Source: Spirochaetota bacterium (GTDB lineage: Bacteria; Spirochaetota; Spirochaetia; CADAEX01). Taken from it: a DNA stretch of 64,000 bases. The stretch covers positions 8,483 to 72,482 of the forward strand of contig WQTU01000139.1 in the NCBI GenBank assembly GCA_009786125.1, in the 5' to 3' direction. This document shows positions 3,741-64,000 of this stretch, one piece after another. Both the position numbers and the translations under genes were made by a program. The notes beneath the pieces are model-generated. The model saw nothing but the letters and a program-made list of their open reading frames with translations. It was not told where the DNA came from and ran no database searches. The first letter of the stretch is position 1; each line of letters starts with the position of its first letter.

Positions 3741-3746
3741 TAAAAA

Positions 3747-4028: not shown

Positions 4029-4030
4029 CT

Positions 4031-4393: not shown

Positions 4394-4545
4394 ATTTAAA
4401 GCGTATCAAAATTGATACAACATGTCAAGCGATTATTTATAATCCCATATAAAACCTTTCACTGCGGATTTATAAGTTCCTTATCTGACATGGAAAAATC
4501 TTCGGCGAATTTTACTGTTGCTTTTCCCTTTAAAGTACCCAGTTC

Positions 4546-4640: not shown

Positions 4641-4702
4641 AGTTCGATGGCAAAGGTTTCTATGAGGGGTGGTGGTCATTGTTCAAATATTATGACATAA
4701 GT

Positions 4703-8542: not shown

Positions 8543-8714
8543 CGCCTCCTCCGGCTTTCAGCTTTTTTTGCATTTCGCGCAAAGCATCTAAATATGCTTT
8601 TTCTACATCAGTTAAATCATCCAAAAAAGCAATTTGCATATTTTGCACATTGCTTTTTCCGCCAAGTTTAATTGCGTCAACATTGCTGACACAATTTGGT
8701 ATCTGATTACTCAT
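8529..8714 (-). CDS. Small hypothetical protein (61 aa, Gly-rich C-terminus)
   Basis: ORF only. It is tightly packed between RhuM and hsdS (3-nt gap upstream, 14-nt overlap downstream). Confidence 0.25.
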   Translation of the reverse strand: MSNQIPNCVSNVDAIKLGGKSNVQNMQIAFLDDLTDVEKAYLDALREMQKKLKAGGGGGDE

Positions 8715-8717
8715 TTG

Positions 8718-9788: not shown

Positions 9789-9816
9789 AGATTCACCTTT
9801 AATTTATTCCACTCAC

Positions 9817-10530
9817 TCATTGACTTTTCCCCCTCATAGAATATCTCACAATCCATTTGCCGGTTTTATCAGCACCAACACGCTCTATAACCCCTGATTT
9901 TTTCAGTTGAGCAACATTGTATTCCACTCTACGTTTAGTTATTTGAATGGTACCTGCAATTTTTTCAGCAGTAATTTCAGGGTTTTCAATCATTAAGGCA
10001 ACAATTTTCGCTTTTAATTCATCCAATCTATAATTTACACCACCATTTACACCACCATCTAATGCTTCTTCCCTTTTATTGTTATTTCTGATATGAAAGC
10101 AAATTGAAAACATAGTTGCCAAAATATCAAATTCGGGCTCAGGAAGGTTATCGGCAATGCAGCCGCTTTTCATTTTTTCAATACCTCTTCCCCAAGCTTC
10201 AATTTGCCCGGAACGAAAATAATATTTTCCTCTAAAGCTGATGGCATTCGGGTGCAGGCTTATCTTTATGACAATATAATCTAAGCTTTTTTCTGTGTAC
10301 AAATTGACATCAGCTAAAATCCCCATTGTTGAGCGAATTTTATTAGGAAGCTCTTCCAACAATTTTGATGCATTTGATATTCCGACAACTACACCACGAT
10401 TGTTTTTGCCAATTTCAAGAACACCTCCCTGTGCATTAGCAAAACCGCAAATCCACTTCAGGTATTCGTCGCGCCAAGTCTCTTTCCATTCAACAATCTG
10501 ATTTTCTCGGCTTTTAACTTTTTTATTCAT
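9817..10530 (-). CDS. AlbA_2 (Schlafen-like) domain protein with C-terminal winged-HTH
   Basis: N-terminal [27 protein letters not shown] is AlbA_2-like. A C-terminal HTH is present. There is a 4-nt overlap with hsdM. Confidence 0.65.
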
Positions 10531-15945: not shown

Positions 15946-18900
15946 CTAATCATGAATGGACAGACTTTTAATATATTTTTTTAATTCAGAATTATCGGGC
16001 ATGATATAAGGTTTATATTGGAAGATGTTTTTTACTCCATCAGAGTAATATACTGTATTATCTTTTAAACCAGCAACAGCAACGCCGTCAATGAGATTGT
16101 CAGCATCGCTGTTGCTCAAAGCAAAAATGATTCTTGCAGGAAATTTGGATAAAATGTTTTCACCATAATACATATTTTCCTTGACGCTTTGATATTCAAG
16201 CGAAGAAGTAATAAAATAAATTCCATAATTGGACCCATCGTCAATAAGCTGCAACAGTTTTTCTGAGATGGACAGGGATGGAGAGCCTGCATTTCCTGAT
16301 ACACCGAAATCAGCAAATTCATTTACGGACTTAGTGGCAATATTATCAATATATTCACTTTCATCTACGGACTCACCTTTAAACATTTTTTTTATAAGAT
16401 CAAGAAATTGCAGGTTCTTTATTACAACCAAAGATTGTTTATTATCCCCGCCCTTTTTTCTCTCTGAGTAAATTGTAAATAAATCGTTGATAATTTGAAT
16501 TATTTCTGTTCTGTTTTTTGCAGTCCTGAAACGTAAACTAAAACCGGTTAAACAATCATAAAATGCAGCCGAGATGCTTTCGCCTATTAAACTCTCTCCA
16601 TCTATACAGTAAACATTAGTATTTGTGTTCAGTAATGCTGAAAACATACAAAGGTTAGTAAGATTTTCAGCCATTTTTTCGTTTGCTCCACAAATTAATA
16701 AATTATGCCTTCTGCGCCGATCAAACTGCATAATAAATGGTGGTGCAACCTTTATGAGTGTCCCCATGTATATTTTTATAACGTTATCAGATGAAGAACC
16801 TGTTTTGCTTTGATTCAAATATTCAACAAGTGAAACCGTTCTGTTTCCTTCAAATATTTGCATCGTAGCTGGATAATCTGCATACTTTTCAGAAATAAGA
16901 GACAAATATTTTATTTGTGCTTTTTTTGAGCAATATGCGGCACGGAATCCTATATTATTTGATTCCATGTATTCCAAATTCATTACGGCTGTACCGATAG
17001 GGCCTTTCATCATTTCAATGATTTTATCATCGTTTCGATTTCCGAATAAATACCGTATATCATCCTCACCGCATTTTAAACCAATACGGATACGCATTTG
17101 TTCAATAATGCCATGCGATAGTGTCAGTTCACTTATAATTTTTGTAGTCTGCGTTGCCATCAAAAGATGAATGCCAAAGGCCCGACCTTCGGTGACGATC
17201 CGCTTAGTCAGTTCAGAGCAATTTCTGGCTACTTTGCGATTTGCAGAATCATTAAAAAGAATTTGAAACTCGTCCATGACAACTAAAATACGTGGCAGAG
17301 GATTTCCTGTGCCTTTTATATAATCAAAAAGGCTTGATTGTCCAGAATTTTTAAACAAGTCTCCACGGCGCAGCATTTCGCTGACTAGATTTTCCAATAT
17401 ACTCTCGCCAAATTCCTGCATGGCATCAAGCGCTAATAATTGAATATGCGGCAAATTGAAAGATTCATAAATCTTAAACTCTGTTCCGCTTTTAAAATCC
17501 ATCAAATACAAATGTAACTCATCTGGGCTATGGGATAACATACCACTCATAATTATTGTGTGCAGTAAAGTTGATTTGCCGGAGCCCGTAGCACCGGCGA
17601 TTATCCCATGATGTGATGAACCTTCTCCCAATATCAAGTCTACAGGGTTTTCGCCGTCGCCAATGCCCACGGTAATAGATAGTCTTTTTGCTGTTGAAGA
17701 AGAAAAAAGCGATGGACTTATAATGTCTTCAAGGGATAGACCTTTTTGTTTTAGGTTGGTAATAGCTTCTATGTATTGATTTATAAAATCGGAAATCCTG
17801 TTCTTTGATAGCTCAGGTGCTACATCAACTTGTAATCCAAAAGGTTGAAGAATATATTTTTTTTCAACATATTCCAACAAAGAACAGTGTTTTTTTATCT
17901 CTTCAAGATGTTCATCGATACTCTCATACTTTGAAAATAAGATATTTGGATTATGGCATATAACTGCGTAAATTCCGCATTTGCTGCCATTATTAAGAAT
18001 ATTTATTAACAACTCTATACTTCGGTTGTCAAAATTGCGGGGAAAATCAAATATAATCAACATAATAATAGGTTCGATACGATTAGGCGTGTTACTGTTG
18101 TATTCAATAATATTGGCAAAGCGATTGCCGAGCTTCTCCTGGATAAACTCGTCAATATATCTGTTTAATTTTTGCAGCGTACCTATCATAGCGTCTTGTG
18201 TGGTATAAATTTGTCCGTCAAAAATATCAGGAAGATTTTGGCGAAAATCCAAAAAAGGCGTTATGCTGTTACCCCGGCGTTCAGCATCAAATACGCAAAA
18301 TTTTATTTTTGAAACCGGAACAGAAGATAGAAAGCTCCACATTAAACCGTGTATAAATTTTATTACATGCTGCTGGACTGCTTCCGGGCAAATAATTAAT
18401 AGACTACTTTTTTCTTTAAGGTTAAAAATTGCCGGCAAAATAAAAGTTTGTGAATTTTGTGTTGTCAATTCAGTTTTTATTCTTGCAATCGTATTGTTAT
18501 CTGCTACTAAATCCAAAGGACAGGATAAATACCCTACTGAGATTTCCGCGGGGAAACTGTCTGTAACTGACGGAACTACACCAAAAGTATTGTTATACCT
18601 GTCAAGAGTATTTTTTATTGCACTTATTGCAAATTGAACTTTATCGGCATTTTCACTGTCTATCAGTTCACAGACTATAGAACCTAATAAAGCAATATTG
18701 CCGTGAAAACTACTGTAAGTGAATAAATAATTTTTGATATATCTTGATAAATCATTTCCTGCAAGGGCTTCATTATATGTTACCCGAAGATTGTAGTAGA
18801 GGAACATATCAACCGCTTGTTGGATGATAATACTGTTTTTTACATGGTAAGGCGGCAAGGCATTTCCTGACTGTACTCTATATACAATTACGGTATAAAC

Positions 18901-20226
18901 ACCAAGATTTTTTCCATTTTCAATAATGTTATTTATCGATGCTACATTTTTGTCTCCCAATGCTTCGGGAGAGTCGAAAACAATTAAAACCTTTATATCT
19001 GGTGTTGCCACTGTATTATTGCAAATACTCAGTTTTTCTAATGTTTCCCTTATTTCCTCATTGGATGTTTTTACTCCTCCATTAAACAGTTCCGGTATTT
19101 TTTTGATAAAATCCATATATGAAGACACATTTTTTCCCTGACCTTCTGAATCTATTATGCTGAAAGTCAAATGTGTAACCGGGGCAAAAGCAATAAAACT
19201 CTGTATTATGGAGCTAACAAGTTGGTTTTTAAGATTGCTATTTACCGTATATTTTACAAGTAAATTCAAATTATCGCTTAAAGAAAATACAAGAGGAAAC
19301 CTAAGTAATTTACTTTGTGAAATAATGGCCGCACATTTATCTTTAATAAGTGAAAACAAAATCTTGGAACTCACAAATAATTCTAATGGATAGTCAATAT
19401 TCCCTAAGACAATAGTATCATCCCATGCACAATAGCTTGATGTTATTCCTGTAAAGTTACTAATATAGCGTTCATTAATTGTTTTTAATGAACCTAACAG
19501 ACTATCAGGTAAAATCTTATCTAACTGTTCACAAATCTCATCAGCCAATATTTCTACGTTGCTTTCATACCTTGATTTTATTTTAGACAGTTCTGCTTGA
19601 TACTTTGATTCTATTTCCTCAGTTTTTTTGGCATGAGCATCTTTCTCAGCTTGTGTTGAATCATTGACCAGTTCAGCTATTGTTTTTTTGATTTCTTCCA
19701 TTAAATTTTCTAGTCTTATTTTCAGAACAATTAAATCTTCATAGTCTTGTTTTCGTTGTTTTGAAAAGGCAAAGTTTATACCATCAAAAAGAGCAGGTAA
19801 TTTCTCTTTTGAATATTTTAATGAAAGTGATTCAAATTGTTTTTTAACATTTTCTAAGGCTAAAAAAATGTCAGGATCATCAATGGTGGTTATTTCGGCT
19901 TTTTTTCCCAGCTCCTCTGTTTTAAGATCTCGCGCTTTAACATAATATTTATCAGCATTTGCCAGAGAAGTATCCAATGCCAATACTTCTTTATATATTT
20001 TTTCAGCATTGTTCTTTAATTCGGCACCTTTTTTTCTAGTAACATTAGCACTACTATCATATTGCCCAGCGGCATTTGACATGAATTGATTATATTGTTC
20101 TTCCAAGCTTTTTTTTGAGTTTTCAAAATTATTCCATAATTGCTGAATTCTCTGATCAGATTGTTCTGCAAAGGAATTAATGTTATTAATGAGTCTCAAA
20201 ACTGTTTGATATGTAATTTTACTCAT
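15946..20226 (-). CDS. Giant FtsK/SpoIIIE-family multi-domain ATPase with N-terminal coiled coil (EssC/EccC-like, no TM or FHA)
   Basis: One intact FtsK-type P-loop domain (HHGIIAGATGSGKSTLLHTII; Walker B RILVVMDEFQ) is flanked by three degenerate FtsK-like domains (VLIVFDSPE, IIMLIIFDFPRNFDN, SLVVIKNLQFLD). About 250 aa of N-terminal coiled coil. No hydrophobic TM segment. Confidence 0.7.
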   Translation of the reverse strand: MSKITYQTVLRLINNINSFAEQSDQRIQQLWNNFENSKKSLEEQYNQFMSNAAGQYDSSANVTRKKGAELKNNAEKIYKEVLALDTSLANADKYYVKARDLKTEELGKKAEITTIDDPDIFLALENVKKQFESLSLKYSKEKLPALFDGINFAFSKQRKQDYEDLIVLKIRLENLMEEIKKTIAELVNDSTQAEKDAHAKKTEEIESKYQAELSKIKSRYESNVEILADEICEQLDKILPDSLLGSLKTINERYISNFTGITSSYCAWDDTIVLGNIDYPLELFVSSKILFSLIKDKCAAIISQSKLLRFPLVFSLSDNLNLLVKYTVNSNLKNQLVSSIIQSFIAFAPVTHLTFSIIDSEGQGKNVSSYMDFIKKIPELFNGGVKTSNEEIRETLEKLSICNNTVATPDIKVLIVFDSPEALGDKNVASINNIIENGKNLGVYTVIVYRVQSGNALPPYHVKNSIIIQQAVDMFLYYNLRVTYNEALAGNDLSRYIKNYLFTYSSFHGNIALLGSIVCELIDSENADKVQFAISAIKNTLDRYNNTFGVVPSVTDSFPAEISVGYLSCPLDLVADNNTIARIKTELTTQNSQTFILPAIFNLKEKSSLLIICPEAVQQHVIKFIHGLMWSFLSSVPVSKIKFCVFDAERRGNSITPFLDFRQNLPDIFDGQIYTTQDAMIGTLQKLNRYIDEFIQEKLGNRFANIIEYNSNTPNRIEPIIMLIIFDFPRNFDNRSIELLINILNNGSKCGIYAVICHNPNILFSKYESIDEHLEEIKKHCSLLEYVEKKYILQPFGLQVDVAPELSKNRISDFINQYIEAITNLKQKGLSLEDIISPSLFSSSTAKRLSITVGIGDGENPVDLILGEGSSHHGIIAGATGSGKSTLLHTIIMSGMLSHSPDELHLYLMDFKSGTEFKIYESFNLPHIQLLALDAMQEFGESILENLVSEMLRRGDLFKNSGQSSLFDYIKGTGNPLPRILVVMDEFQILFNDSANRKVARNCSELTKRIVTEGRAFGIHLLMATQTTKIISELTLSHGIIEQMRIRIGLKCGEDDIRYLFGNRNDDKIIEMMKGPIGTAVMNLEYMESNNIGFRAAYCSKKAQIKYLSLISEKYADYPATMQIFEGNRTVSLVEYLNQSKTGSSSDNVIKIYMGTLIKVAPPFIMQFDRRRRHNLLICGANEKMAENLTNLCMFSALLNTNTNVYCIDGESLIGESISAAFYDCLTGFSLRFRTAKNRTEIIQIINDLFTIYSERKKGGDNKQSLVVIKNLQFLDLIKKMFKGESVDESEYIDNIATKSVNEFADFGVSGNAGSPSLSISEKLLQLIDDGSNYGIYFITSSLEYQSVKENMYYGENILSKFPARIIFALSNSDADNLIDGVAVAGLKDNTVYYSDGVKNIFQYKPYIMPDNSELKKYIKSLSIHD

Positions 20227-20254
20227 ATAACGCTCTCCTTAGCCATTTATGATT

Positions 20255-21379
20255 TTACTTCTCATACTTGCATTTTTTGCCGCATTTTTTTGAAAAACCA
20301 ACTTTTAGTGAAGTCGTAACCTGAAGGGGATAGCTAAATATCTCAACCATTTCGCCGCCGATTTTCGGATTACTTGTATTGCTTACAAGCGTATATTGCG
20401 TAAGATTATTCAATAAACGCGGGATATAACCCTCATTGTTTGCATTAAAAATATCGAGTATCAGCTTGATACCGATTGAAGTAGCAAAATTTATATCGAC
20501 TGATATACCAGGCTCAAACTTTACTCCTTCGGTATTTTCTTGATTTGAGTATACATGATGATTGGCCTCGGCTCTTGACGAAAGGCCGCTGCCATCGCCT
20601 AAAGCGCACTCATAACATGGCAAGCCTTTTCCATACAGGTGATAAAAAATCTCACCAGCAAAAGCCCTTTCCCAAAATCCTATAGAAACAAAAGAGGATT
20701 GATAGTATATGCTGATTCTATTTGTGTACACGTCCGCAATGCGGTTGTCAGCACAGCCGATAAAAACTGTGTTTCCAGCTACACAAAACGAATCCATAGT
20801 TTCTTTTGGCAAATTCTGTACGATGCCTTCAAAAGTAATTACCTCTGCACTTGGATTAATATTAAGAATCTTTCTTTTGAGAGCATATACTTTAAAATCA
20901 CCAACATCTTCTATTCCGCATTGATGGCGGCAAATATTATGATATTCTACTATATCTGCATCAACCAAAATAAAATGCTTTACTCCAGCCCGTGCCAACT
21001 CCAGGGCAACCAGGCTGCCGACAGAGCCGCAGCCTAATATTATTGCTTTTTTTTGGCACATTATATCAGATTCTAATATCCCCTTGTTACGTGAGAATAT
21101 ATTTTGATAGAGGCTGTATATTTCACATTTTATTTTTTTTCCATAACTATAAAAATCTATACCTGCACTTGTAATAACTCCACACAGCTTGTTCTTGTTA
21201 CAATTACTGCCTTTCGGTAACACTTTTCCTAGAAGCTCTCCTTTACTTTCCAGTTCGGGAGGAAATACATTATATATGGCAGATTCTTTGTAATACCTGC
21301 CATATATATTCCTTTCATTTTGAGTACTTGCCTGTATGTCTGATATGAATACCGTCTTTTCCATTTGTGGTTTTTTCAT
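20255..21379 (-). CDS. ThiF/MoeB/E1-like adenylyltransferase (ubiquitin-activating-enzyme-like)
   Basis: Rossmann nucleotide loop KKAIILGCGSVGSLVALELARAGVKHFILVDADIVEYHNICRHQ is present, with downstream CxxC (CYEC) and conserved Cys candidates. Confidence 0.8.
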   Translation of the reverse strand: MKKPQMEKTVFISDIQASTQNERNIYGRYYKESAIYNVFPPELESKGELLGKVLPKGSNCNKNKLCGVITSAGIDFYSYGKKIKCEIYSLYQNIFSRNKGILESDIMCQKKAIILGCGSVGSLVALELARAGVKHFILVDADIVEYHNICRHQCGIEDVGDFKVYALKRKILNINPSAEVITFEGIVQNLPKETMDSFCVAGNTVFIGCADNRIADVYTNRISIYYQSSFVSIGFWERAFAGEIFYHLYGKGLPCYECALGDGSGLSSRAEANHHVYSNQENTEGVKFEPGISVDINFATSIGIKLILDIFNANNEGYIPRLLNNLTQYTLVSNTSNPKIGGEMVEIFSYPLQVTTSLKVGFSKKCGKKCKYEK

Positions 21380-21381
21380 TC

Positions 21382-22368
21382 CTATAAATCCTTGTTTTCA
21401 TTTCCTATACCGAACGCACGCAGTAAACCAGACTTAAATGTGACATCTGCGGGGTTAAAGTCTGTTAATAAATTGGTGAATAGCCCTGGGGTATATAAAT
21501 AGCAATCATCGTCATGAGAAAAAACAATCTGCTTCTTATGTGCAACATATATAAAGTGAATCATTGTAACAATGTTACTTGACCCTTTATGAGATAAGCT
21601 TAAAACTCCCTTGTTTTGTTCAATTTTCAAAGCCAATTTTCGATTTTCAGAAAAATATGTTATATCGTCCAGCAAAGAATCAATTAAAAAATCTCGATAT
21701 TTTTCAGCCTCTTCTGGCTTGTAATCATCTTTAGACAGTGTAGTTTTCTGTAATTTTCCTTTGATGCTAACAAGTAAACGTAAAAAATCTATTTCCGGTT
21801 TGTCAAAGGTTTTATTTCCGGAATATAATTTGTCAGCGTAACTATTTATATATCCAAGTGATTTTTCCGCATTTCTTAACGCAAGTAAATGTTCAGGGAT
21901 TAAGTTATCACCCACTTTATAAGCGATTTTAGTATATTTAAGGGGCCATGCTACATGATATGGCGTAATGCGGAACTTTGGATCAATATTAACCAAAACA
22001 GAAACAGCGCCATTGGCAGACATTTTAGCATAATCAGAGTTAGTTCCATCGTCTGTGGAAGAAAACTCGTCAAAAGAACCCGGATGCCTGTGCCATAGCC
22101 CAATTAAAGTCAATTTTGCTTGATATATCTGTACTAATTTGTTTATTAAATGTTCTGTATATTTTTTATCGTACTCGAAGTATGCAACTTGAAAAATCGC
22201 CTTTGGGCCTGGGTCTATTGCTTCTATGACATACCAATTCCCATTCTCAAAGCAGCCTAAAAATATTCCGCCGGTTTCGGTTTTTATTTTTTCTGAGGTT
22301 TCCGAAATAACCGCCGTGTATGCGCGATTAGAAAAAATCACCTGCATAATTTTCCCCCGTTGATACAT
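21382..22368 (-). CDS. JAB/MPN (JAMM) metallo-isopeptidase-like protein with ~200-aa C-terminal extension
   Basis: Perfect JAMM motif H-x-H-x7-S-x2-D in LIGLWHRHPGSFDEFSSTDD, with an upstream conserved Glu (VIEAID). Confidence 0.8.
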   Translation of the reverse strand: MYQRGKIMQVIFSNRAYTAVISETSEKIKTETGGIFLGCFENGNWYVIEAIDPGPKAIFQVAYFEYDKKYTEHLINKLVQIYQAKLTLIGLWHRHPGSFDEFSSTDDGTNSDYAKMSANGAVSVLVNIDPKFRITPYHVAWPLKYTKIAYKVGDNLIPEHLLALRNAEKSLGYINSYADKLYSGNKTFDKPEIDFLRLLVSIKGKLQKTTLSKDDYKPEEAEKYRDFLIDSLLDDITYFSENRKLALKIEQNKGVLSLSHKGSSNIVTMIHFIYVAHKKQIVFSHDDDCYLYTPGLFTNLLTDFNPADVTFKSGLLRAFGIGNENKDL

Positions 22369-34761: not shown

Positions 34762-35055
34762 TTATAGTTCTTCTTCGGTGTCAGCCGGGTTTTCCAGAAT
34801 GTTTTTTATATAGAATTCCAATGCTGTAAGCCTGAGCGATACGCTATCTTCGTTAGATTTGCCTGCCTGAAATGACTTTAAAACCCCGATAAGGTTATCA
34901 ATAAGACCTTTTCCTGCCTTCATGTTTAATTCGGCAGCGTCCGCACCTATTTTTTCAAGTTTTTCCATACTCGCAGGGGCTATCTTAAAAGCAGAAGAAT
35001 TTATCTCTGAGATGATTGTATTTAATTCCTGGCACAGATTTTTTACATTACCCAT
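34762..35055 (-). CDS. Hypothetical protein (97 aa)
   Basis: ORF only. Confidence 0.35.
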   Translation of the reverse strand: MGNVKNLCQELNTIISEINSSAFKIAPASMEKLEKIGADAAELNMKAGKGLIDNLIGVLKSFQAGKSNEDSVSLRLTALEFYIKNILENPADTEEEL

Positions 35056-35090
35056 GACAATCTCCTAACCTTAATATTATGATACAGACA

Positions 35091-35135
35091 TAATATAATA
35101 TAATATAATATAATATAATATAATATAATATTTTT
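35091..35135. repeat. Pentanucleotide microsatellite (TAATA)9 in the promoter region of the 97-aa gene
   Basis: Direct reading taatataatataatataatataatataatataatataatat, 36-80 nt upstream of the start at 35055. Confidence 0.9.
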
Positions 35136-54299: not shown

Positions 54300-55508
54300 T
54301 TATTCCCCTGCTTTAAAATTATACACAGGCTTAATGTGCAGAAGAATTTCAGCAGTAGGCGTAATCTGTTTCACAATCGATTCCATGCTTTTGTATGCCA
54401 TTGGCGCTTCATCAAGCGTATCCTTTCCTATACAGGTTGTGAATATGCCCGCCATTTCTTCTCTGTATTTATCCATCGAAAGCGCGCTGAATGCAGCTGT
54501 GCGGCTCATAATTCTGCCGGCGCCATGCGGAGCAGACTGGTTCCAGTCATCGTTACCTTTGCCAATGCAAATCAGGCTGCCGTCGCGCATATTCATCGGA
54601 ATCAATAATTTTTCACCCTGCTTCGCCGACACTGCGCCTTTTCGCAAAATCATGGTATCTGTATCAATATAATTATGAATCGTTGTAAATTCACTGTTTT
54701 TTGTTAATCTCATTTGGGTTAAAATCACATCCACCATTGCCTTGCGGTTAAGAACAGCAAAGCGCTGAATAATCTTCATATCGTGAATATAATCATCGAA
54801 TAAATCTCCGGTAACGTATGTTAAATCCTTGGGAACAGGCAAAGAACGCGCGCTTTCGCGTTTCATCTGTTTTACAGCAGAATCTATTTCCTTTTTCCGG
54901 CCGTCCCTTTTAAGCTGTGCAACAAGCTCGTCAATCTGTGCGTCCAGGTTGCCGGAAAGCTGTTTTAAAGCTTTATCCTGATAATAGTCTGCAACCTCTG
55001 TTCCCAAATGGCGGCTGCCTGAATGCACCACAACAAAGAGTGTTCCGTTATCTGCGCGACCAACCTCGACAAAGTGATTTCCGCCACCTAACGTGCCGAT
55101 GCTGTGGCGGGCGCGGCTTAGGTTAACCTTTGCAGCGCATCGCAACCGGGTCAAGTCGATTTCCGAATTAAGAGCGTGAAGATCGCGGCGTATTCCGCGC
55201 CCGGATGGAATATTTCTGCGAATTGCGCTATCCAGTTTTTCAAAGCTGATTTCTTTTTCTGCAAGCTCAACTGTTTCCATGCCGCAGCCTATATCAACAC
55301 CCACCATGCCCGGAACAATTTTATCCGTGATCGTCATTGTTGTACCGATTGTGCAGCCTTTCCCTGCGTGTACATCCGGCATTATGCGTATTTTGCTGTC
55401 AGAAAATACAGCTTGATCGCAAACTATTCGAATTTGTTCCCATGCTTTGTCATCCAATTCATCACAAAAACAAAGAGCAGTATTATGTGTGCCTTTTACT
55501 TCAATCAT
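54300..55508 (-). CDS. rtcB: RNA-splicing ligase RtcB
   Basis: MPDVHAGKGCTIGTTMT..GVDIGCGM and the C-terminal HGAGR region are RtcB hallmarks. Confidence 0.9.
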   Translation of the reverse strand: MIEVKGTHNTALCFCDELDDKAWEQIRIVCDQAVFSDSKIRIMPDVHAGKGCTIGTTMTITDKIVPGMVGVDIGCGMETVELAEKEISFEKLDSAIRRNIPSGRGIRRDLHALNSEIDLTRLRCAAKVNLSRARHSIGTLGGGNHFVEVGRADNGTLFVVVHSGSRHLGTEVADYYQDKALKQLSGNLDAQIDELVAQLKRDGRKKEIDSAVKQMKRESARSLPVPKDLTYVTGDLFDDYIHDMKIIQRFAVLNRKAMVDVILTQMRLTKNSEFTTIHNYIDTDTMILRKGAVSAKQGEKLLIPMNMRDGSLICIGKGNDDWNQSAPHGAGRIMSRTAAFSALSMDKYREEMAGIFTTCIGKDTLDEAPMAYKSMESIVKQITPTAEILLHIKPVYNFKAGE

Positions 55509-55555: not shown

Positions 55556-55590
55556 AAAAGGTATCATACCGCGGTATGATACCTTTTGTT
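55556..55590. promoter_or_regulatory. Perfect 24-bp palindrome GGTATCATACCGCGGTATGATACC flanked by A4/T4 (operator-like or bidirectional hairpin) in the rtcB/formyltransferase divergent intergenic region
   Basis: Direct reading aaaaggtatcataccgcggtatgataccttttg. Related GGTATAATACC/GGTATTATACC palindromes at 50399-50409 and 57486-57496. Confidence 0.6.
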
Positions 55591-55591
55591 T

Positions 55592-55720
55592 CCTCACGCG
55601 CTCGGTTCACAAGTGGCATAGCCCCTTTGCCCACCTCATCGTTCGGTCATGTGCAAATTACATTTGCCCGCAACTCTCACTTATTCGGCGGATGAGCGTG
55701 CTTGCACGTCGCGACACTCG
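55592..55720. repeat. GC-rich interspersed repeat (R1 inverted copy + R5 module)
   Basis: The reverse complement of 55592-55654 reads gcacatgaccgaacgatgaggtgggcaaaggggctatgccacttgtgaaccgagcgcgtgagg. ctctcacttattcggcggatg at 55673-55693. Confidence 0.85.
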
Positions 55721-55835
55721 CTTTGTTCGGAAATAAAACAAGAGATATACGAACAGCATAAATTATGCCTTGACCATGTTGTGTTTAATCAAGTAAAGTG
55801 CTTGAATATGTATTATGAATATTTTTATTTGAATT

Positions 55836-56630
55836 ATGTTAGGTGGACGAATGTTAAAAACAGTTATTTTTACGCAAGAAGACAAGTTTTTTATTCCCGC
55901 AAATATTCAAAAAATAATTGATAATTCCGAGGTTTTGTTGATAGTTAATAACAATTGTAAATTTGCTTTGCAAAATAAAGTTTCGGATTTTTTGAAGTGG
56001 TTCGGATTTTTCCAGGTCGCGAAAATGGGATTTGCCGAGATTTTCCGCACTTTTATTGGATGGCTGGATTTTGTCTGCAGATACAAGCTTTGCCGCGGGT
56101 TATGTTCTGTTAAAGCAGTTGCGAAAAAAAACAAAATAAAATATATAAAAATGCCCAATATCAATAATCCTGCATTTTTTGAACAAATCAAAGCGATTAA
56201 CCCGGATGTAATATTATCTTTCTCAATGCCGCAGGTTATAAAAGACCCTTTGCTTAGTTTTCCGAAATTTGGCATTTTAAATGTGCATGGCAGCCTTCTG
56301 CCGGATAACCGCGGCTGTTTGCCAAGTTTCTGGTATTTGTTTCAGGGCAAGGAAGAGGCTGGCGCGACTGTTCATTTTATGTCTGCGAAAATCGATGACG
56401 GTGATATTGTTGATCAGGAAAAAGTCTTCATCGGTGACTGCAAAACCATGTTTCAAGTAATAGCGCGCACCAAAAAGGTCGGCGGAGAATTGATGGTTAG
56501 GGTGCTTCATGCCCTTGAGCAGGGAACGCTCAACCGGCGGCCCAATCCGCAGGATCAAGGGTGCTACAATACATGGCCTACTGTTGAGCAGACCAGACAA
56601 TTCAGAAAAGACGGGAAAAAATTGATTTGA
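55836..56630 (+). CDS. Formyltransferase-domain protein (Fmt/ArnA-N-like; possibly sugar N-formyltransferase)
   Basis: ILNVHGSLLPDNRGCLPSFWYL..GATVHFMSAKIDDGDIV is the formyl_trans_N catalytic region. The start is probably at MLKTVIF (55851). Confidence 0.7.
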   Translation: MLGGRMLKTVIFTQEDKFFIPANIQKIIDNSEVLLIVNNNCKFALQNKVSDFLKWFGFFQVAKMGFAEIFRTFIGWLDFVCRYKLCRGLCSVKAVAKKNKIKYIKMPNINNPAFFEQIKAINPDVILSFSMPQVIKDPLLSFPKFGILNVHGSLLPDNRGCLPSFWYLFQGKEEAGATVHFMSAKIDDGDIVDQEKVFIGDCKTMFQVIARTKKVGGELMVRVLHALEQGTLNRRPNPQDQGCYNTWPTVEQTRQFRKDGKKLI

Positions 56631-56643
56631 GGATATTCGAATA

Positions 56644-57483
56644 ATGCATAAAGTTTTTTTAACAATGGATTTTGAGGACTGGACAGATGTGCCTTATTTT
56701 AAAGGTCATCTTGATTCAGACAAGCGTTTAGCTCGCCATGCGCTCCCCTTTATGCAAGAAATGGCGGACATGGGTATATTCTTCACTGTTTTTGCGTTAG
56801 GTCGTTATGCCAAAGACGATCCTGAAACTATACGCTCTCTTGCAAAGATGGGTCACGAGATCGCGTGTCACGGACTAGATCACACTTTGCTTTATAACCT
56901 TTCGCCGGAAGATTTTGTACAAGCCTCGCGCGAGGCTAAAATCCGCCTTGAAGAATTATCCGGAAAGCCGGTTATTGGTTACAGAGCACCCTGTTTCTCC
57001 ATGCAGAACGACAAGCTTTCAGCGTTATGGGAGTTGGGGTTTAAATATGATGCGTCAATGATCAGGTTTAAAGAGCACAGGTATTACAATGTTATGGATT
57101 TGTCCAGATTTAAAAAACGTGACGGGTTAATACATGAAATAGACGGGCATATTGAGTTTGAAACGCCCACAGTGAATATTTTCGGTAAGTATATTCCGTT
57201 TACGGGCGGCGGATATTTCAGACTCTTTCCTTTATTTATTTTAAAGTTTCTTGCAAAAAGATATTTGAAAAAAGAAGGTAACTACATGCTTTATATTCAC
57301 CCGTGGGAGCTTGCCAAAGATTCACCGGAAACTGCAAGCAAAATAAAGCTAATCAATCAGTTTGTGTTTAAGGTCGGAAGGAAAAGACTCGTCGGAAAGC
57401 TAAAAAAATTCATCTTGTGGCTGCAAAAACAGAACGTACAGTTTATACGCATGGGAGATTTCTGCAATATTTCATCGAAATAA
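56644..57483 (+). CDS. Polysaccharide deacetylase (NodB-like/ArnD-like) family protein
   Basis: TMDFEDW..MGHEIACHGLDH motifs are typical of the NodB-homology/DUF3473 family. Confidence 0.65.
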   Translation: MHKVFLTMDFEDWTDVPYFKGHLDSDKRLARHALPFMQEMADMGIFFTVFALGRYAKDDPETIRSLAKMGHEIACHGLDHTLLYNLSPEDFVQASREAKIRLEELSGKPVIGYRAPCFSMQNDKLSALWELGFKYDASMIRFKEHRYYNVMDLSRFKKRDGLIHEIDGHIEFETPTVNIFGKYIPFTGGGYFRLFPLFILKFLAKRYLKKEGNYMLYIHPWELAKDSPETASKIKLINQFVFKVGRKRLVGKLKKFILWLQKQNVQFIRMGDFCNISSK

Positions 57484-57498
57484 ATGGTATTATACCAT

Positions 57499-58692
57499 TT
57501 ATTTACTCTCTCGTTCTGTCATAGCATTAATGTAAATATCTTTTATTATTTCAATTGTTTTGTCTTCATTAAAATTTTCAAGACAATGTTTTTTTGCATT
57601 TGTCCCAAGTTCTTTTCTTATATCATCGTTTGTTAATAAACAATACATTTTCTCTGCAAATTTTTCACAATCATTAAGTTCCACAAGATATCCATTATAA
57701 TTATCCACAATAACTTCATTTGTCCCAATTACATTTGTCCCAATACATGGAATCGAATAATACATAGATTCCATTAGACTGCGCGGCATCCCTTCGTTAA
57801 TCGAAGTCAATACAGAAATATCAGCAATTTCAAGGTACTCTGCTACTTCTTTCCGCTGTAATTTCCCTGTAAAAACAACATTTTCAGACAAGTTATATTG
57901 CGTTACTATTTTCTCCAAATACTGGTATTCGCCTTCCCCTATGATATAAATTATAAATTTATTGTATTGATACTGAGTTCTTAATAAATTGGCAACTTCT
58001 AACAGCATTTTATGATTCTTAACCGGCTCTATTCTAGCAACGCATATAATTATTTTTACATCATTGTCTCTGCTGCCGGAGATTCCGCTAAAATGATCAA
58101 AATTTATTCCATTTTTTATCATGTGGAATTTAGTTTTTTTGGGTTTAAACTTCATGGACAATTCATACTCATATTTGTTTTGGAACAAAAGTGCATCGGT
58201 TATAAATGCCAGCATTTTCTCTATCCAGTAAAATATTTTTCTTTTAAATCCTTTCAGTCTAAAAAAATAGTATCCATGAACCTGGTGTATTATATATATT
58301 TTCTTTTTTCTGAATAAATTTATATACCAACACACAATTCTTCCAAGCGCACCTGCTTTGGAAGTATGGGTATGAATAATATGGGGAGAGTTGTTTTTAA
58401 TAATTTTATATAATTCAACAAACTCGCAAATAATATTAAAAATCCCAAGTTCCCTGCTAATTTTCATTGTTAAAACCGGAACACCTGCTTCTGCAATTCG
58501 GTGCGCCTCTTCGCCTTCCGGGCAAATTATTGAATTATTAAATCTTATATCATTATGAACCATTTTTACACGACTAAAAAGAAGCCTTTCCGCGCCTTTT
58601 CCGGTATTTATGAAATCAATTACTTGAATTTTATTCATCTTATATTTTCTCCAAATTAAGGTTTTTAAATCTTCCGGTGCTTTTTGCTTCAA
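57499..58692 (-). CDS. Glycosyltransferase family 4 (GT-B, retaining)
   Basis: E-x7-E region EGMPRSLMESMYYSIPCIGTNVIG. 4-nt overlap with the downstream epimerase gene. Confidence 0.8.
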   Translation of the reverse strand: MKQKAPEDLKTLIWRKYKMNKIQVIDFINTGKGAERLLFSRVKMVHNDIRFNNSIICPEGEEAHRIAEAGVPVLTMKISRELGIFNIICEFVELYKIIKNNSPHIIHTHTSKAGALGRIVCWYINLFRKKKIYIIHQVHGYYFFRLKGFKRKIFYWIEKMLAFITDALLFQNKYEYELSMKFKPKKTKFHMIKNGINFDHFSGISGSRDNDVKIIICVARIEPVKNHKMLLEVANLLRTQYQYNKFIIYIIGEGEYQYLEKIVTQYNLSENVVFTGKLQRKEVAEYLEIADISVLTSINEGMPRSLMESMYYSIPCIGTNVIGTNEVIVDNYNGYLVELNDCEKFAEKMYCLLTNDDIRKELGTNAKKHCLENFNEDKTIEIIKDIYINAMTERESK

Positions 58693-59663
58693 TCATAATA
58701 ATCTATCCCTTTCATAAGCTCTCTGTTTTCATGATACCACTCAACGGATTTAGTTACACCTTCATCAATTTCTGTTATAGGCTGCCAGCCGAGAAGCTTG
58801 TGTGCTTTTGATATATCTGCCATTGTTTCTTTCATATCAGCTTTGTTAAACGGGAAATATTCAATTACAGCTTTTTTGTTTGTTTTTTCTTCGATTGATT
58901 TAATGAAATCATTAATTGTTACCGGACTTCTGCCGCCACCCAAGTTTATTATTTCATATCCCAACGGAGCAAGAGCTTTTATTGTTCCTTCCGCAATATC
59001 ATCAATATAAGTAAAGTCTCTTGATTGATTCCCGTCACCATAAAGCTTAAGCGGCTTCCCTTCAACAATCGAGTGTATGAAACGAAGCGGACTCATATCC
59101 GGCCTGCCGGCAGGACCATAAACCGTAAAGTATCTTACAACAGTAACATCAACCCCATAAAGATAGTGATATGTATAGGATAAAACTTCCGCAGCTTTTT
59201 TAGATGCTGCATACGGAGAAATAGGTTCATTTACCGGATATTTTTCAGAAAACGGAATTGGTTCCCCGGAGTATAATGAAGAAGTTGACGCAAGCACAAA
59301 TTTATTTATTTTATGTTCAACACAGAGTTTTAGAAGATTCAGGGTTCCTTGCACATTGGTTGAAAAATAAATATCAGGATTTTCTATACTTGCACGCACC
59401 CCTGCTCTTGCCGCAAGATTGATAACTGCATCGAATTTTTTTTCTTCAAATAGTTTTTTTAATTCAAGATAATTTTCTATATCTATTTGCCGGAACTCAA
59501 TATATTTTTTTGCAAGATGTTTGAGCCTGTGTTCTTTTAGCCTGACATCGTAATAATCATTTACATTATCAATGCCTGTTACTTTATAACCATAATCTGC
59601 CAGTTTTTCACAAGTTCTGCTGCCAATAAAACCTGCTGACCCTGTTACAAGTATATTTTTCAC
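58689..59663 (-). CDS. NAD-dependent nucleotide-sugar epimerase/dehydratase (SDR family)
   Basis: VTGSAGFIGS Rossmann motif. Catalytic YxxxK (YAASKKAAE). Confidence 0.8.
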   Translation of the reverse strand: MKNILVTGSAGFIGSRTCEKLADYGYKVTGIDNVNDYYDVRLKEHRLKHLAKKYIEFRQIDIENYLELKKLFEEKKFDAVINLAARAGVRASIENPDIYFSTNVQGTLNLLKLCVEHKINKFVLASTSSLYSGEPIPFSEKYPVNEPISPYAASKKAAEVLSYTYHYLYGVDVTVVRYFTVYGPAGRPDMSPLRFIHSIVEGKPLKLYGDGNQSRDFTYIDDIAEGTIKALAPLGYEIINLGGGRSPVTINDFIKSIEEKTNKKAVIEYFPFNKADMKETMADISKAHKLLGWQPITEIDEGVTKSVEWYHENRELMKGIDYYD

Positions 59664-60199
59664 TTTAACAGCCTTTTTATTATATTTTCTATCTCATAGA
59701 AATCTTTAACAGAATAATCAGCAGATGTCTCTTCATTATCTGTATTTATTAAAATTGTTTTCATGCCGGCATTTTTTCCAAACTCTACATCGCTTTCCCT
59801 GTCGCCTATTAAAATAGCTTTTTTTAAATCAATGGCAGGAAAATCATTTTTTGCCATATATGCCATTCCTGGATTAGGTTTCCTGCACTGGCAATTTTCA
59901 TCTTTAAGATGCGGGCAAAAATAAATTCTGTTAATTTTTTTTGCCAGAGTTCCAAGCGCGTCCAGCATTTTATTATGTACTACTTCAAGTTCCTCGATTG
60001 TCATAAGACCTTTGCCAATTCCCTGCTGGTTCGTAACTATAAAAATATGCTTAAACCCAGATGCAATTTTTGGAAAGACATCGAGAAAATCTTTTTTAAA
60101 TTTAAAGTCATTAAAGTCGTATATATATGCATCCGGCATTCTTTCGTTAATAACACCATCTCTGTCAAGAAAAAGAGTCCATGCAGCCTTTTCACACAT
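59660..60199 (-). CDS. gmhB: D-glycero-D-manno-heptose 1,7-bisphosphate phosphatase
   Basis: HAD motif FLDRDGVIN plus the Zn-binding CPHLKDENCQCRKP insert typical of GmhB/HisB-N. Confidence 0.8.
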   Translation of the reverse strand: MCEKAAWTLFLDRDGVINERMPDAYIYDFNDFKFKKDFLDVFPKIASGFKHIFIVTNQQGIGKGLMTIEELEVVHNKMLDALGTLAKKINRIYFCPHLKDENCQCRKPNPGMAYMAKNDFPAIDLKKAILIGDRESDVEFGKNAGMKTILINTDNEETSADYSVKDFYEIENIIKRLLK

Positions 60200-60203
60200 A
60201 ATA

Positions 60204-61148
60204 TTATTTATAATACCCCTGATCTTTGGTTAATATTTTCAAATATTGAGATGCACCTTTATGAATATCTGTCATCTCTTTATCATATTTTCCAATTTTT
60301 CTTAAATCTTCAAGATCTGCCTTTGTATATGCCTGATATTTGCCTTTTAATTTCTCCGGGAAAGGTATTTCCTCTATTCTTATCTCTTTATCAGCAAACT
60401 GCTCTTTTATGGCAATTGCAGCATCATAAAAGCTTTTGCACTGTCCTGTACCACAATTAAATATTCCCGAAATATTGTTATCAAGAAAATGGAGATTGAT
60501 TTTTACTATATCATCCACAAAAACAAAATCTCTTAAAAAATTCTTACTTCCTTCAAATACTTTTATAACACCTGTCTCTTTTGCCTGGTTGCAAAAGTGA
60601 AAAAAAACAGAAGCCATCTTTCCTTTGTGATTTTCTTGCGGCCCGTAAACATTAAAATACCTAAGTCCTACAATCTGGTTTTTACTTGATTTTGCGTTGT
60701 CCCTTACATATTGATCAAATAAGTATTTTGAATACGCATATATATTCAGGGGATACTCGTTACTTCTCTCTTCTTTAAAGCCTTTGTCTCCGTTTCCGTA
60801 CACCGAAGCAGATGAAGCATAAATGAATTTTATGTTTTTTCTGCTGCAGAAATTATAAAGCTGTTTGCTAAACTCATAATTATTTTTCATCATAAAAGCG
60901 CCGTCAGTTTCCATTGTATCTGAACATGCACCCTGATGGGAAATAGCTGAAATATTATCAATAGAATCCAGCTTATTTAAAAAATCTTCTGTGAGTAAAA
61001 TATCTTTGAATTTTAAACTATTAAGATTAAGGTGCTTTTCACTATGTCTTAAATTATCAACTATAATTATATCTTCAATACCTCTGTCATTTAGCCCTTT
61101 AACAATATTGCTGCCAATAAATCCGGCTCCTCCGGTTACTATTATCAT
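60204..61148 (-). CDS. hldD: ADP-L-glycero-D-manno-heptose 6-epimerase
   Basis: MIIVTGGAGFIGSNIVKGLNDRGIEDIIIVDNL is near-identical in pattern to the HldD/RfaD N-terminus. Confidence 0.9.
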   Translation of the reverse strand: MIIVTGGAGFIGSNIVKGLNDRGIEDIIIVDNLRHSEKHLNLNSLKFKDILLTEDFLNKLDSIDNISAISHQGACSDTMETDGAFMMKNNYEFSKQLYNFCSRKNIKFIYASSASVYGNGDKGFKEERSNEYPLNIYAYSKYLFDQYVRDNAKSSKNQIVGLRYFNVYGPQENHKGKMASVFFHFCNQAKETGVIKVFEGSKNFLRDFVFVDDIVKINLHFLDNNISGIFNCGTGQCKSFYDAAIAIKEQFADKEIRIEEIPFPEKLKGKYQAYTKADLEDLRKIGKYDKEMTDIHKGASQYLKILTKDQGYYK

Positions 61149-62593
61149 TTATTGTTTCTCCTGTATTTTTTTAATTATATTTGTACTTGAATATCCATCA
61201 AGAAATTTTACAAGCTTTACTTCTTTTACATATTCGTTGCCAACAACAGATTCAACAGAATAATCTCCGCCTTTAACAAGAACATCCGGGGTTATCTTTT
61301 TTATTATTTCAAGCGGAGTATCTGTATCAAAAACAACAACATAATCTATAAAAGAAAAGTTTGTAAGAACTGTAAGCCTGTCGGAAAGATTATTTATTGG
61401 TCTGGATTCGCCTTTAAGTCTTTTAATTGATGAATCACTGTTAAGACCAAGAATAAGAATATCGCCGAAAGATTTTGCTTCTTTTAAAACTTTTACATGA
61501 CCTGCATGGAAAAGATCAAAGCAGCCATTGGTAAAAACTATTTTTTTACCTCTACCCCTAAGGCCTGCAACCAAGGATTCCAACTCATTTAAACCAACAA
61601 CTTTTTTTCTTTCTTCGTCAAAAGATTGTTCTATCTCTTCTGCAGAAACAGATGCTGTCCCCAATTTTCCGACAACAATACCTGCTGCTTTATTGGTAAC
61701 CAGAAGAGATTCTTCGAGATTAAATTTCGCTCCTAGACATACAGACAATATTGCAACAACTGTATCACCTGCTCCTGATACATCAAAAACTTCTTTTGCT
61801 TTTGTTGGCATGTGAATAATTGATTTGCCGTCAAAACAGCTCATTCCTTTCTCAGACCTCGTTACTAGAAGTTTTTGGAGATTATATTTTTCTGCGATAT
61901 AACATATATATTTCTCGATGTCTTCGTCGTTATTTGATATTTCTTTGCCGACCATTGCTTTAAATTCTGAAAAATTTGGCGTAACAATATAACTGCCTGA
62001 ATACTTTTCCCAGTTTGTTCCTTTGGGATCAACTATTGTTGGGATATTTTTTTCTTTGCATACATTTATTATAAATTGGCAAAGTTCTTTTGAGCAAATT
62101 CCTTTTCCATAGTCTGATAGGATAACTGCTGTTCTGTTCTGTTCTGTTCTGTTCTGTTCATCGCAGTTTTTTCTACCTGCTGCATGAAGGCTTTCTTAAG
62201 AAACTCTTCTGCCTCTTTGTTATCTTCTACTGGGTCTTCAAAATCCATTCTTACAATTTGCTGACGCTCGCCTATAATTCTTGCTTTTGTTATTGTAGGT
62301 TTTTTTATAGAAATAAAATCACGTTCTATCTTTTTCTCGGCTAACAGTTTTTCAAGCTTTTTTCTGTTTTCATCATCGCCTGCATAACCTAACAGAAAAG
62401 CAGATGCTCCAACATCTGCAATATTTACAGCAACATTCGCAGCGCCGCCGGGAGTGTAAGTAATGTGATCAACTTTAACTACAGGCACCGGCGCTTCCGG
62501 AGAAAGCCTGTTTACTTTCCCATAGTAATAAATATCAAGCATTATATCGCCAATTACAATTATGCGAATATTATCAAAATTCAAGCTTCCCAT
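61149..62593 (-). pseudogene. hldE: Bifunctional heptose 7-phosphate kinase / heptose 1-phosphate adenylyltransferase HldE, frameshifted at an internal (AGAAC)n repeat (putative phase-variable, currently OFF)
   Basis: The kinase N-terminus (62593-62161, IGDIMLDIYYYGKVNRLSPEAPVPVV..) and the kinase C-terminus plus adenylyltransferase (DVSGAGDT; FTNGCFDLFHAGH) are split in the ORF track. A third frame just after the repeat reads VILSDYGKGICSKELCQFIINVCKEKNIPTIVDPKGTNWEKY..., continuous with HldE homology. Confidence 0.8.
62126..62160. repeat. Pentanucleotide repeat (GTTCT)5 perfect, 7 with flanking near-units, inside hldE
   Basis: ctgct gttct gttct gttct gttct gttct gttca read directly. It encodes NRTEQNRTEQ on the coding strand. 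Confidence 0.95.
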
Positions 62594-62652: not shown

Positions 62653-63807
62653 TTATCTATCAGAGTCTAATAATTCAGAAGCTGCTGTTATTATTTTTTC
62701 AGCAGGAATAGAAGTTAAGCATTTTCTTTCAAACGGGCAACTTCTGCTGCCATTTAAGTCCCAGCAATTAAAACAATCACAGTTTTCGTTTTTTACAACT
62801 CTTACAGTTTTAGACAAGCCTCCCAGGGGCACGCATCGCTTATCATCTGTAGGACCAAAAATTGATATAACAGGTATTCCTGTAGCTGCAGCTATGTGGG
62901 AAGGACCTGTATCTGCGCTTATAAGTAGTTTTGCATGGCTTAACACAGCTGCAAGAATTCTTATATTAGATATATCATCAAATATTTTAACTTTGCTCTT
63001 AATTTTAGAAAAATCATTTTTTTCAATAAAAAACTTTTCATCCGGACCACACAGAAGAACAAACTCGTATGCATTGGAAAATTTTTCCAGCACTTCTTCT
63101 ATAAATTTAAGGGGAATTGCTTTTACCGCTGCTGCTTTTGCAAATCCTCCATGTATAATAATCATTCTGGATTTATCAACACTGTGTTTTTCCAAATAAT
63201 TAATTGCTTGTTCATTTTCCTGTTTTGTTATACTAATTCTTGGAACCTCTATTTTACTATTTTCATCTGTCAAATATTTTAAAGCAGCTAAATTGAGCTC
63301 TATTTCACTTTTCCCTTCTTCGTATTCAATATTTATTGCATTTTCTATTGCTGCTACATTTTTATATTTTACAAAAATAATTTTTTTAGCAAGACCTATT
63401 TTTTTTAGAAAAGCAGACCAGCCATCACAGGAATAAGGAATAATTACATATTTATAAAAATCAATAAAAGCTATCTGATTATTATGTCTTTTAGTAATCA
63501 ATAATTCCAGCAAAAAAGTCAACAGTTTTTTTCTATCACCGTCATAAGTATATGCCTCATCGTACAGTTTTCTATCGTCAGTAACTAGCAATATATTGGA
63601 TTTATTGCCAGCAACAATAATTTTGTAATTTGGCTTTAATCTTCTTAATTCTGTTAACAAAGGAATTGTCATAATTGTATTGCCAAGACCAGATGTAAGA
63701 ATTAAAAGTATATTTTTTTTACGAGAAAAACGACCAAAAATCATTTTAAAAGCTAGTCTGCAAATTTTTAATAAAAACACTATTTGACAAATCTCCTCTT
63801 TGTGCAA
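62653..63807 (-). CDS. ADP-heptose:LPS heptosyltransferase (GT9 family)
   Basis: N-terminus ILLILTSGLGNTIMTIPLL. C-terminus LISADTGPSHIAAATGIPVISIFGPTD is the GT9 signature. The start is probably the internal Met at 63744. Confidence 0.8.
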   Translation of the reverse strand: MHKEEICQIVFLLKICRLAFKMIFGRFSRKKNILLILTSGLGNTIMTIPLLTELRRLKPNYKIIVAGNKSNILLVTDDRKLYDEAYTYDGDRKKLLTFLLELLITKRHNNQIAFIDFYKYVIIPYSCDGWSAFLKKIGLAKKIIFVKYKNVAAIENAINIEYEEGKSEIELNLAALKYLTDENSKIEVPRISITKQENEQAINYLEKHSVDKSRMIIIHGGFAKAAAVKAIPLKFIEEVLEKFSNAYEFVLLCGPDEKFFIEKNDFSKIKSKVKIFDDISNIRILAAVLSHAKLLISADTGPSHIAAATGIPVISIFGPTDDKRCVPLGGLSKTVRVVKNENCDCFNCWDLNGSRSCPFERKCLTSIPAEKIITAASELLDSDR

Positions 63808-63817
63808 ACTTGTAGAA

Positions 63818-63853
63818 TTTGTTTGTTTGTTTGTTTATTTATTTATTTTTTTT
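63818..63853. repeat. Compound tetranucleotide repeat (TTTG)4(TTTA)3T8 just upstream of the heptosyltransferase gene
   Basis: tttgtttgtttgtttgtttatttatttatttttttt read directly, 10-110 nt upstream of the candidate starts. Confidence 0.9.
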
Positions 63854-64000
63854 ATTTATAATTCTTTTTGGCATTTTCTTTTTTATTTCTCTAATAATTT
63901 TACCTGTAAACTCTTTGACGATTTCTCCGTTAACAACTTTAATAACACGCGTAGTTGATACATCTTTTGTTCTTGGAACAATAACAAGTTTTCCTTGCGC

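Follow-up and report, generated by a model that had tools for sequence, protein, structure and literature searches.

Analysis of a 64,000-nucleotide stretch of DNA from a Spirochaetota bacterium (contig WQTU01000139.1; hereafter the window) revealed that its hldE gene, for the bifunctional enzyme of ADP-heptose synthesis, is split by a frameshift at a perfect tract of pentanucleotide repeats. We lean towards the reading that hldE is phase-variable by slipped-strand mispairing and is currently switched off, with variation in repeat copy number as yet unproven. The elements of the gene on which this reading depends are as follows:

61149..62593, minus strand: hldE, encoding the bifunctional D-beta-D-heptose 7-phosphate kinase / D-beta-D-heptose 1-phosphate adenylyltransferase, interrupted at the position of the repeat by a frameshift
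62129..62158, minus strand: perfect (AACAG)6 tract, plus-strand unit CTGTT; if the G before it at 62159 is counted, the periodicity extends over 31 nt
62166..62173, minus strand: A-run region GAAAAAAC, 1 nt shorter than the GA8TG or GAGA6TG of relatives
62069..62593, minus strand: off-state product of 174 aa, an N-terminal fragment of the kinase domain, ending at the TAA at 62069..62071
61149..62135, minus strand: remainder of HldE in the +2 frame, stop-free over 328 aa, which covers the C-terminal portion of the kinase plus the complete adenylyltransferase domain

Tandem Repeats Finder reported the tract as a 100% perfect period-5 array (62129..62159, 6.2 copies, CTGTT on the plus strand). 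The GTTCT/AGAAC repeat described in the first-pass annotation of this DNA is the same array, as its units are rotations of CTGTT/AACAG. At the site the coding strand reads ...GAAAAAACTGCGATG(AACAG)6CAGTTATCC..., so that the minus-strand reading across the tract is ATG(AACAG)6CAGTT. The tract is located ~30% into hldE, inside the kinase domain, where it occupies codons 146-155. Translation from the ATG at 62593 gives 145 residues of a PfkB-type kinase, then NRTEQNRTEQ, 19 unrelated residues and the TAA (...EKTAM-NRTEQNRTEQ-QLSYQTMEKEFAQKNFANL), and the resulting 174-aa product has neither the GAGDT region nor the adenylyltransferase domain. The remainder of HldE is open in the +2 frame (RTAVILSDYGKGICSK...DPKGTNWEKY...), stop-free to 61149. 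This continuation reads RTAVILSDYGKG...DPKGTNWEKY..., runs into the adenylyltransferase domain and ends at the stop codon at 61149. A tblastn search of the window with the restored protein likewise returned two segments, in frames -1 and -3. The break at the repeat and the +2-frame continuation had both been noted in the first-pass annotation and are borne out here. That annotation also had NRTEQNRTEQ followed by an early stop, which is correct, and placed the stop 18 codons later, where the actual count is 19 sense codons, a trivial difference.

When hldE was rebuilt in silico with 2 to 10 copies of the repeat, a full-length protein (the on form) was obtained only with n = 2 (474 aa), n = 5 (479 aa) and n = 8 (484 aa). 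The other copy numbers (n = 3, 4, 6, 7, 9 and 10) gave products of 169-194 aa. The earlier proposal that loss of one unit or gain of two would restore an HldE of roughly 480 aa agrees with these rebuilt products of 479 aa and 484 aa. The in-frame copy numbers of 2, 5 and 8 (n = 2 mod 3) arise because the 1-nt deficit in the A-run region requires 5n - 1 to be divisible by 3. The tract is no chance feature, because 100 third-order Markov simulations of the window produced a mean of 0.01 pentanucleotide tracts of at least 4 copies and a maximum of 4 copies, whereas the window itself has two pentanucleotide tracts, of 6 and 8 copies. The cut-off of PhasomeIt for predicted phase variation is at least 5 pentanucleotide units (PMC6321876), and the (AACAG)6 tract, with 6 units, is above it. 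A pentanucleotide tract of no more than 4 units, in hsdM of Haemophilus influenzae, is reported to switch at high rates (PMC2651432; see also reference 49 of PMC6321876). In silico the (AACAG)6 tract also has further properties expected of a phase-variable simple sequence repeat, being perfect, intragenic and made of a unit that is not a multiple of 3 nt, with a copy number that toggles the gene between full-length and truncated products.

The identity of the gene was apparent once the frame had been restored. The five-copy HldE (479 aa) scored 536.6 bits against the NCBIfam equivalog NF008454 (cut-off 521), with residues 5-478 of 479 covered, and it was also above the cut-offs of both domain models (TIGR02198, 362.3 bits with a cut-off of 345; TIGR02199, 187.3 bits with a cut-off of 181.5), all of which supports the original designation of the gene as hldE. 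Pfam matches in the restored protein were PfkB (PF00294; rfaE domain I) and CTP_transf_like (PF01467; rfaE domain II). In its present six-copy form the sequence yields fragments only. Relatives of HldE with solved structures in the PDB are Burkholderia HldA (4e84) and HldC (5x9q).

Apart from its single frame break, hldE has no other stop codon or indel in 1.4 kb, and it retains every one of the 83 columns that are invariant in an alignment of 57 sequences. The ratio of nonsynonymous to synonymous substitution (dN/dS, Nei-Gojobori) was 0.107-0.135 between the hldE of the window and those of three relatives, and 0.097-0.109 among the intact relatives. Judged by its sequence, the gene shows no decay otherwise and is under purifying selection; neither the further disabling mutations nor the relaxed selection that mark a decaying pseudogene were found in it. 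Because its dN/dS is like that of intact orthologues and there is no other lesion, the inactivation of hldE is either very recent or reversible. The AlphaFold2 prediction for the five-copy HldE had a mean predicted local distance difference test score (pLDDT) of 90.4. In this model the tract residues 146-152 form a loop, with a local pLDDT of ~72, between a helix (126-145) and a strand (153-158). Such an arrangement is compatible with a tolerated surface insertion, and is no proof of one.

Comparison with relatives places the origin of the tract in the lineage of the window. The closest full-length HldE proteins (83-86% aa identity) are from the spirochaete metagenome-assembled genomes (MAGs) Spirochaetia EPI_MAG_00173 (L004) and Spirochaetaceae Lab288P3bin165 (L005); the isolate or contig names of the relatives hint at the termite gut, which is our own reading of the labels. 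The intact orthologues (L004, L005 and P0001-P0004) have the same gene order as the window, GT9-hldE-hldD-gmhB, but they read EKKCD/AVILSDY with no repeat, and their A-run region is 1 nt longer. In a DNA alignment, five related loci (L004, L005, L010, L011 and L013) have GA(A/G)A(A/G)AAAATG(C/T)GAT followed by GCAGTTAT, encoding EKKCD/AVILSDY, where the window has GAAAAAACTGCGATG(AACAG)6CAGTTAT, i.e., a 30-nt insertion. The tract was present neither in these five loci nor in 56 homologues and is an insertion particular to the lineage of the window. The 1-nt deficit lies 7-14 nt upstream of the tract and includes an A-to-C change. Relative to these orthologues, the on form would have TAM in place of KCD, plus eight added residues.

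A different frameshift was observed in a sister species. In the Logan assembly SRR23967707 (L010, ~1350), hldE equals that of EPI_MAG_00173 (L004) except that an A7 run in the interdomain linker has become A8, which divides the gene into ORFs (open reading frames) of 350 aa and 142 aa, a clean separation of the kinase domain from the adenylyltransferase domain. Either the extra A is a sequencing error in the homopolymer, or hldE of this clade has a second, independent site prone to frameshifts.

The off form of hldE is found in several databases. An identical 174-aa product is present in NCBI (MCL2295400.1), JGI, ENA and MetaClust, with contigs of 137,773 and 181,331 bp. These records imply six copies, because all encode the same 174-aa product, and possibly all derive from the same reads. 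NCBI labels MCL2295400.1 a "PfkB family carbohydrate kinase" and the 306-aa MCL2295399.1 an adenylyltransferase. The two are one hldE in the off phase and not two genes, a point of some relevance to the annotation of MAGs, in which a single off-phase gene can appear as two separately named halves.

Since the tract is just 31 nt and the same off product recurs across records, a miscount by the assembler is unlikely. Indeed, we consider it very improbable that the off state is an assembly or sequencing artefact, in which the true copy number would be in frame and the repeat miscounted. The sequences are from metagenome assemblies, repeats are classic sites of error, and the k=31 Logan assembly does break at the tract. 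Against this, the 31-nt tract is far shorter than Illumina reads and the final MEGAHIT k-mer (k141), and the off product is the same in NCBI, JGI, ENA and MetaClust, from contigs that differ in size. In the Logan contig at least 5.6 copies precede the same right flank, which excludes n = 5 as its assembled allele, and the neighbouring difference is no homopolymer miscount, since it includes the A-to-C change.

Searches for alleles with other copy numbers covered several data sets. An exact pattern search of JGI metagenome contigs, with both flanks and a gap of 10-40 nt, gave no copy variants of the tract, and a protein-guided scan of JGI returned other species only (82-88% identity), all of them without the tract. 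Among GTDB representatives there were only two related MAGs, and the species of the window was not among the representatives. The 174-aa fragment, used as a homology query for partial products that end in different tails, matched only itself, and exact look-ups of HldD, the GT9 protein, the N-terminal ORF and P0122 gave no more than one Logan contig besides the ENA contig of which the window is part (ERZ27257345:k141_4339100, 181 kb). The phase-variable switch proposed in the first-pass annotation stands as regards the tract, its frames, the unit threshold and the otherwise intact gene, while no variation in copy number was seen in the records.

A k=31 Logan contig (L002), identical in two samples, is 100% identical to positions 55558..62156 of the window. 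It begins inside the tract, at CAG(AACAG)5CAGTT (at least 5.6 copies), and its other end is at a perfect 32-nt palindrome, so both ends coincide with sequence features (repeat and palindrome) and not with arbitrary positions. A lone six-copy allele has no repeated 30-mer to force a k=31 break. The break in L002 weakly hints at extra k-mers in the sample, from longer alleles or from unrelated (AACAG)n tracts. Allele heterogeneity as a cause of the L002 end was not matched by simple copy mixtures, and is suggestive only. The palindrome itself (AAAAGGTATCATACCG followed by CGGTATGATACCTTTT, at ~55557..55588) lies downstream of an RtcB gene (54300..55508, minus strand) and is probably a bidirectional terminator hairpin.

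A number of observations weigh against a reversible switch. No on allele was present among 5.8 billion protein clusters, in which the best full-length match was 85% identical, and no second copy number was seen, every full record being the six-copy off product. Neither the JGI contig set nor the GTDB representatives include the species. The end of L002 is 2 nt beyond any simple branch point between 5 and 6 or 6 and 7 copies, and a second Logan contig (L025) starts inside the (ATTAT) tract of the window at a similarly unexpected offset. Six units are few by comparison with classic contingency tracts, and the rate of switching may be low. In the wider alignment, none of the 56 homologues has an extra residue at the tight helix-to-strand turn that holds the tract, and this insertion, together with the change from KCD to TAM, may mean that the on form is impaired. 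Furthermore, if the upstream sequence of the relatives is taken as ancestral, six copies (30 nt) would be in frame, and either the 1-nt loss or a slippage step could equally be named the inactivating lesion.

The main rival reading is that of a recent, effectively fixed pseudogene, in which ADP-heptose was no longer needed, a microsatellite expanded by chance, and the A-run deletion or slippage killed the gene with no switch involved. We think this explanation rather unlikely. In its favor, there are two independent differences from all relatives (the loss of 1 nt with an A-to-C change in the A-run, and the gain of 30 nt), the insertion is by itself in frame with the ancestral upstream sequence and lies in a turn where homologues have no extra residues, and all records of the strain are off. 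The A7-to-A8 frameshift in hldE of the sister species, seen in one Logan assembly, is a hint that this clade can tolerate losing the gene. Set against these points is the condition of the gene itself, with no further stop codon or indel over its 1.4 kb, every invariant residue in place and a lineage dN/dS indistinguishable from that of intact orthologues, so that any inactivation must be very recent. The neighbouring hldD, gmhB and GT9 genes are intact as well. The tract is also still perfect and, because this implies recent or ongoing slippage, the frame would keep toggling, whether selected or not.

That the six-copy gene is still functional, through ribosomal frameshifting, transcriptional slippage, or a separate C-terminal adenylyltransferase working with a kinase encoded elsewhere, appears to us highly unlikely. 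An internal ATG at 61955 does open a 268-aa ORF with the whole adenylyltransferase domain, of which NCBI annotates a 306-aa version, and the A8 frameshift of the sister species splits hldE cleanly between its domains. The break in the window, however, falls at residue 146 of ~320, inside the kinase domain, and neither fragment has a complete PfkB fold. No second hldE, hldA or pfkB-like heptose kinase was found in the 64-kb window by tblastn with the restored protein. Programmed frameshifting was considered and rejected, as the tract is without an X XXY YYZ slippery heptamer.

The genes that surround hldE bear on what a switch would control. Those closest to it are the following:

62653..63807, minus strand: GT9-family heptosyltransferase, directly upstream of hldE (PF01075 at 2.2e-18)
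60204..61148, minus strand: hldD, ADP-glyceromanno-heptose 6-epimerase (TIGR02197, 383.5 bits, cut-off 274.6)
59660..60199, minus strand: gmhB-like heptose 1,7-bisphosphate phosphatase, next in the cluster (best match NF006506, 131.9 bits, below its cut-off of 178)

The ATG of hldD abuts the stop codon of hldE (TAAATG). The gmhB-like protein (L003 8395-8934) scored above the cut-offs of HAD-IIIA domain models. With the heptosyltransferase II model the GT9 protein reached 60.8 bits, where the cut-off is 134.6; its scores for WaaC and WaaQ were lower still, and it was below the cut-off for each of WaaC, WaaF and WaaQ. Further neighbours on the same strand encode an SDR epimerase/dehydratase, a GT4 transferase, a polysaccharide deacetylase and a formyltransferase. 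The cluster is one of ADP-L-glycero-D-manno-heptose supply and glycan assembly. Genes for lipid A or 3-deoxy-D-manno-octulosonic acid (lpx, kds and waaA) were not found among the 20 other ORFs of the window that were scanned. The "LPS core" of the first-pass annotation is an assumption, and lipopolysaccharide (LPS) as the heptose acceptor is unproven.

Just past the end of the window, upstream of the GT9 gene, is a gene for a 171-aa protein of the cytidylyltransferase family (L003 4240..4755). As a candidate stand-alone HldC this protein was unassignable, since its score for rfaE domain II was 62 bits and the cut-off is 181.5; it was also below the cut-off for glycerol-3-phosphate cytidylyltransferase. 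Between the stop codon of this gene and the start of the GT9 heptosyltransferase gene there is a short, low-complexity (AAAT)3(AAAC)4 run on the coding strand (63817..63859; L003 4740..4780).

Returning to the reading that we favor, we hypothesize that hldE is a translational contingency locus, in which slipped-strand mispairing on a hypermutable (AACAG)n tract in the kinase domain would change copy number at a useful rate. With n = 2, 5 or 8 the tract would be read as an additional loop (NRTEQNRT at n = 5) between helix and strand, giving a full-length and presumably active HldE. With any other n, a stop codon 24-39 codons past the start of the tract would leave the cell with no heptose-7-phosphate kinase and no ADP-heptose. 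The off state would abolish the kinase step because the break is inside the PfkB fold, and early termination may also cut expression of the downstream hldD and gmhB. The sequenced population, with n = 6, would be off and a single unit loss (6 to 5) away from on. Switching would remove or restore all of the heptose-containing surface glycan built by the adjacent GT9 protein and the other members of the cluster. Escape from phages that bind the heptose glycan would be the most plausible benefit. Immune evasion, which had also been suggested, is doubtful, given that the nearest relatives are MAGs with names that we read as termite-gut-like.

The proposed mechanism has the design of a classic contingency locus. 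In the lipooligosaccharide (LOS) genes lic1A, lic2A, lgtC and lex2A of H. influenzae, as proposed for hldE, a perfect intragenic repeat with a unit that is not a multiple of 3 nt toggles the product of a surface-glycan gene between a full-length and a truncated form. The LOS genes have tetranucleotide tracts, which as a rule are far longer and lie close to the 5' end, and their switching has been measured. They control transferases that decorate the outer core, and to our knowledge none of them controls synthesis of a nucleotide-sugar precursor. In Vibrio cholerae O1, poly-A tracts in wbeL and manA are frameshift-prone repeats at which reversible loss of a surface polysaccharide guards against a phage that uses the glycan as its receptor. 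Unlike the tract in hldE, these are homopolymers, they affect O-antigen and not heptose, and their effect has been experimentally demonstrated.

Contingency tracts of H. influenzae vary between lineages (PMC2651432). Closest to hldE in repeat type are the pentanucleotide genes hsdM (GACGA)n of H. influenzae, type III mod (CACAG)n of Mannheimia haemolytica and opa (CTCTT)n, which share with it an intragenic 5-nt unit and, on the proposed reading, on/off control through the reading frame. These genes differ from hldE in that their targets are restriction-modification (R-M) enzymes or outer-membrane proteins and their hosts, including Neisseria in the case of opa, are vertebrate-adapted Proteobacteria. 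What is unusual about hldE is the target, a committed bifunctional precursor enzyme rather than a decorating transferase, and the host, a spirochaete that is uncultured and apparently not a pathogen. In literature titles and abstracts, no case of hldE or rfaE being phase-variable through a repeat was apparent, and a search for the sample accessions returned nothing. So far as we found, this would be the first example of it, and among the first contingency loci in Spirochaetota outside host-adapted pathogens.

If the tract does switch, one slippage event would remove or restore all heptose surface glycans and the release of heptose metabolites. Repeat-based bet-hedging would then not be confined to vertebrate pathogens, and the mechanism would act at the top of a nucleotide-sugar pathway, such that the whole heptose surface is changed in one step. 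If the tract does not switch, hldE is merely a very young pseudogene of little interest.

Beyond the hldE locus, the window has a second pentanucleotide tract, as well as a set of genes associated with defence:

35090..35129: perfect (ATAAT)8 tract, intergenic (8.4 copies by Tandem Repeats Finder)
510..12068: defence island, in which a Gabija pair is nested inside a Type I R-M system
510..3740, 7442..8542 and 10527..12068: hsdR, hsdS and hsdM of the Type I R-M system
4703..5830 and 5820..7445: Gabija genes GajB (479.8 bits) and GajA (710.4 bits)
8718..9788: RhuM-family gene in the defence island
15946..22368: E1/JAB-type module, with a ThiF/E1-like gene (20255..21379) and a JAB-domain gene (21382..22368)

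The (ATAAT)8 tract is followed, 35 nt downstream, by the ATG of a 97-aa ORF without a Pfam match (34762..35055, minus strand), and it is in this tract that the Logan contig L025 begins. The tract could alter promoter spacing, and it is a candidate site of transcriptional phase variation. The enrichment of pentanucleotide tracts in the window suggests that this genome tolerates or uses them. Only tentatively would we extend this to a picture of a probably gut-symbiotic spirochaete with pentanucleotide contingency loci, one of which switches the committed enzyme of ADP-heptose synthesis.

If the (AACAG)6 tract does switch, phage are the likely selective pressure, because the same window carries the Type I R-M and Gabija defence genes. 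The ThiF/E1-like and JAB-domain genes adjoin a gene (15946..20226) whose 1426-aa product includes an SspH/mad8-like stretch, and they may represent a ubiquitin-like defence module.

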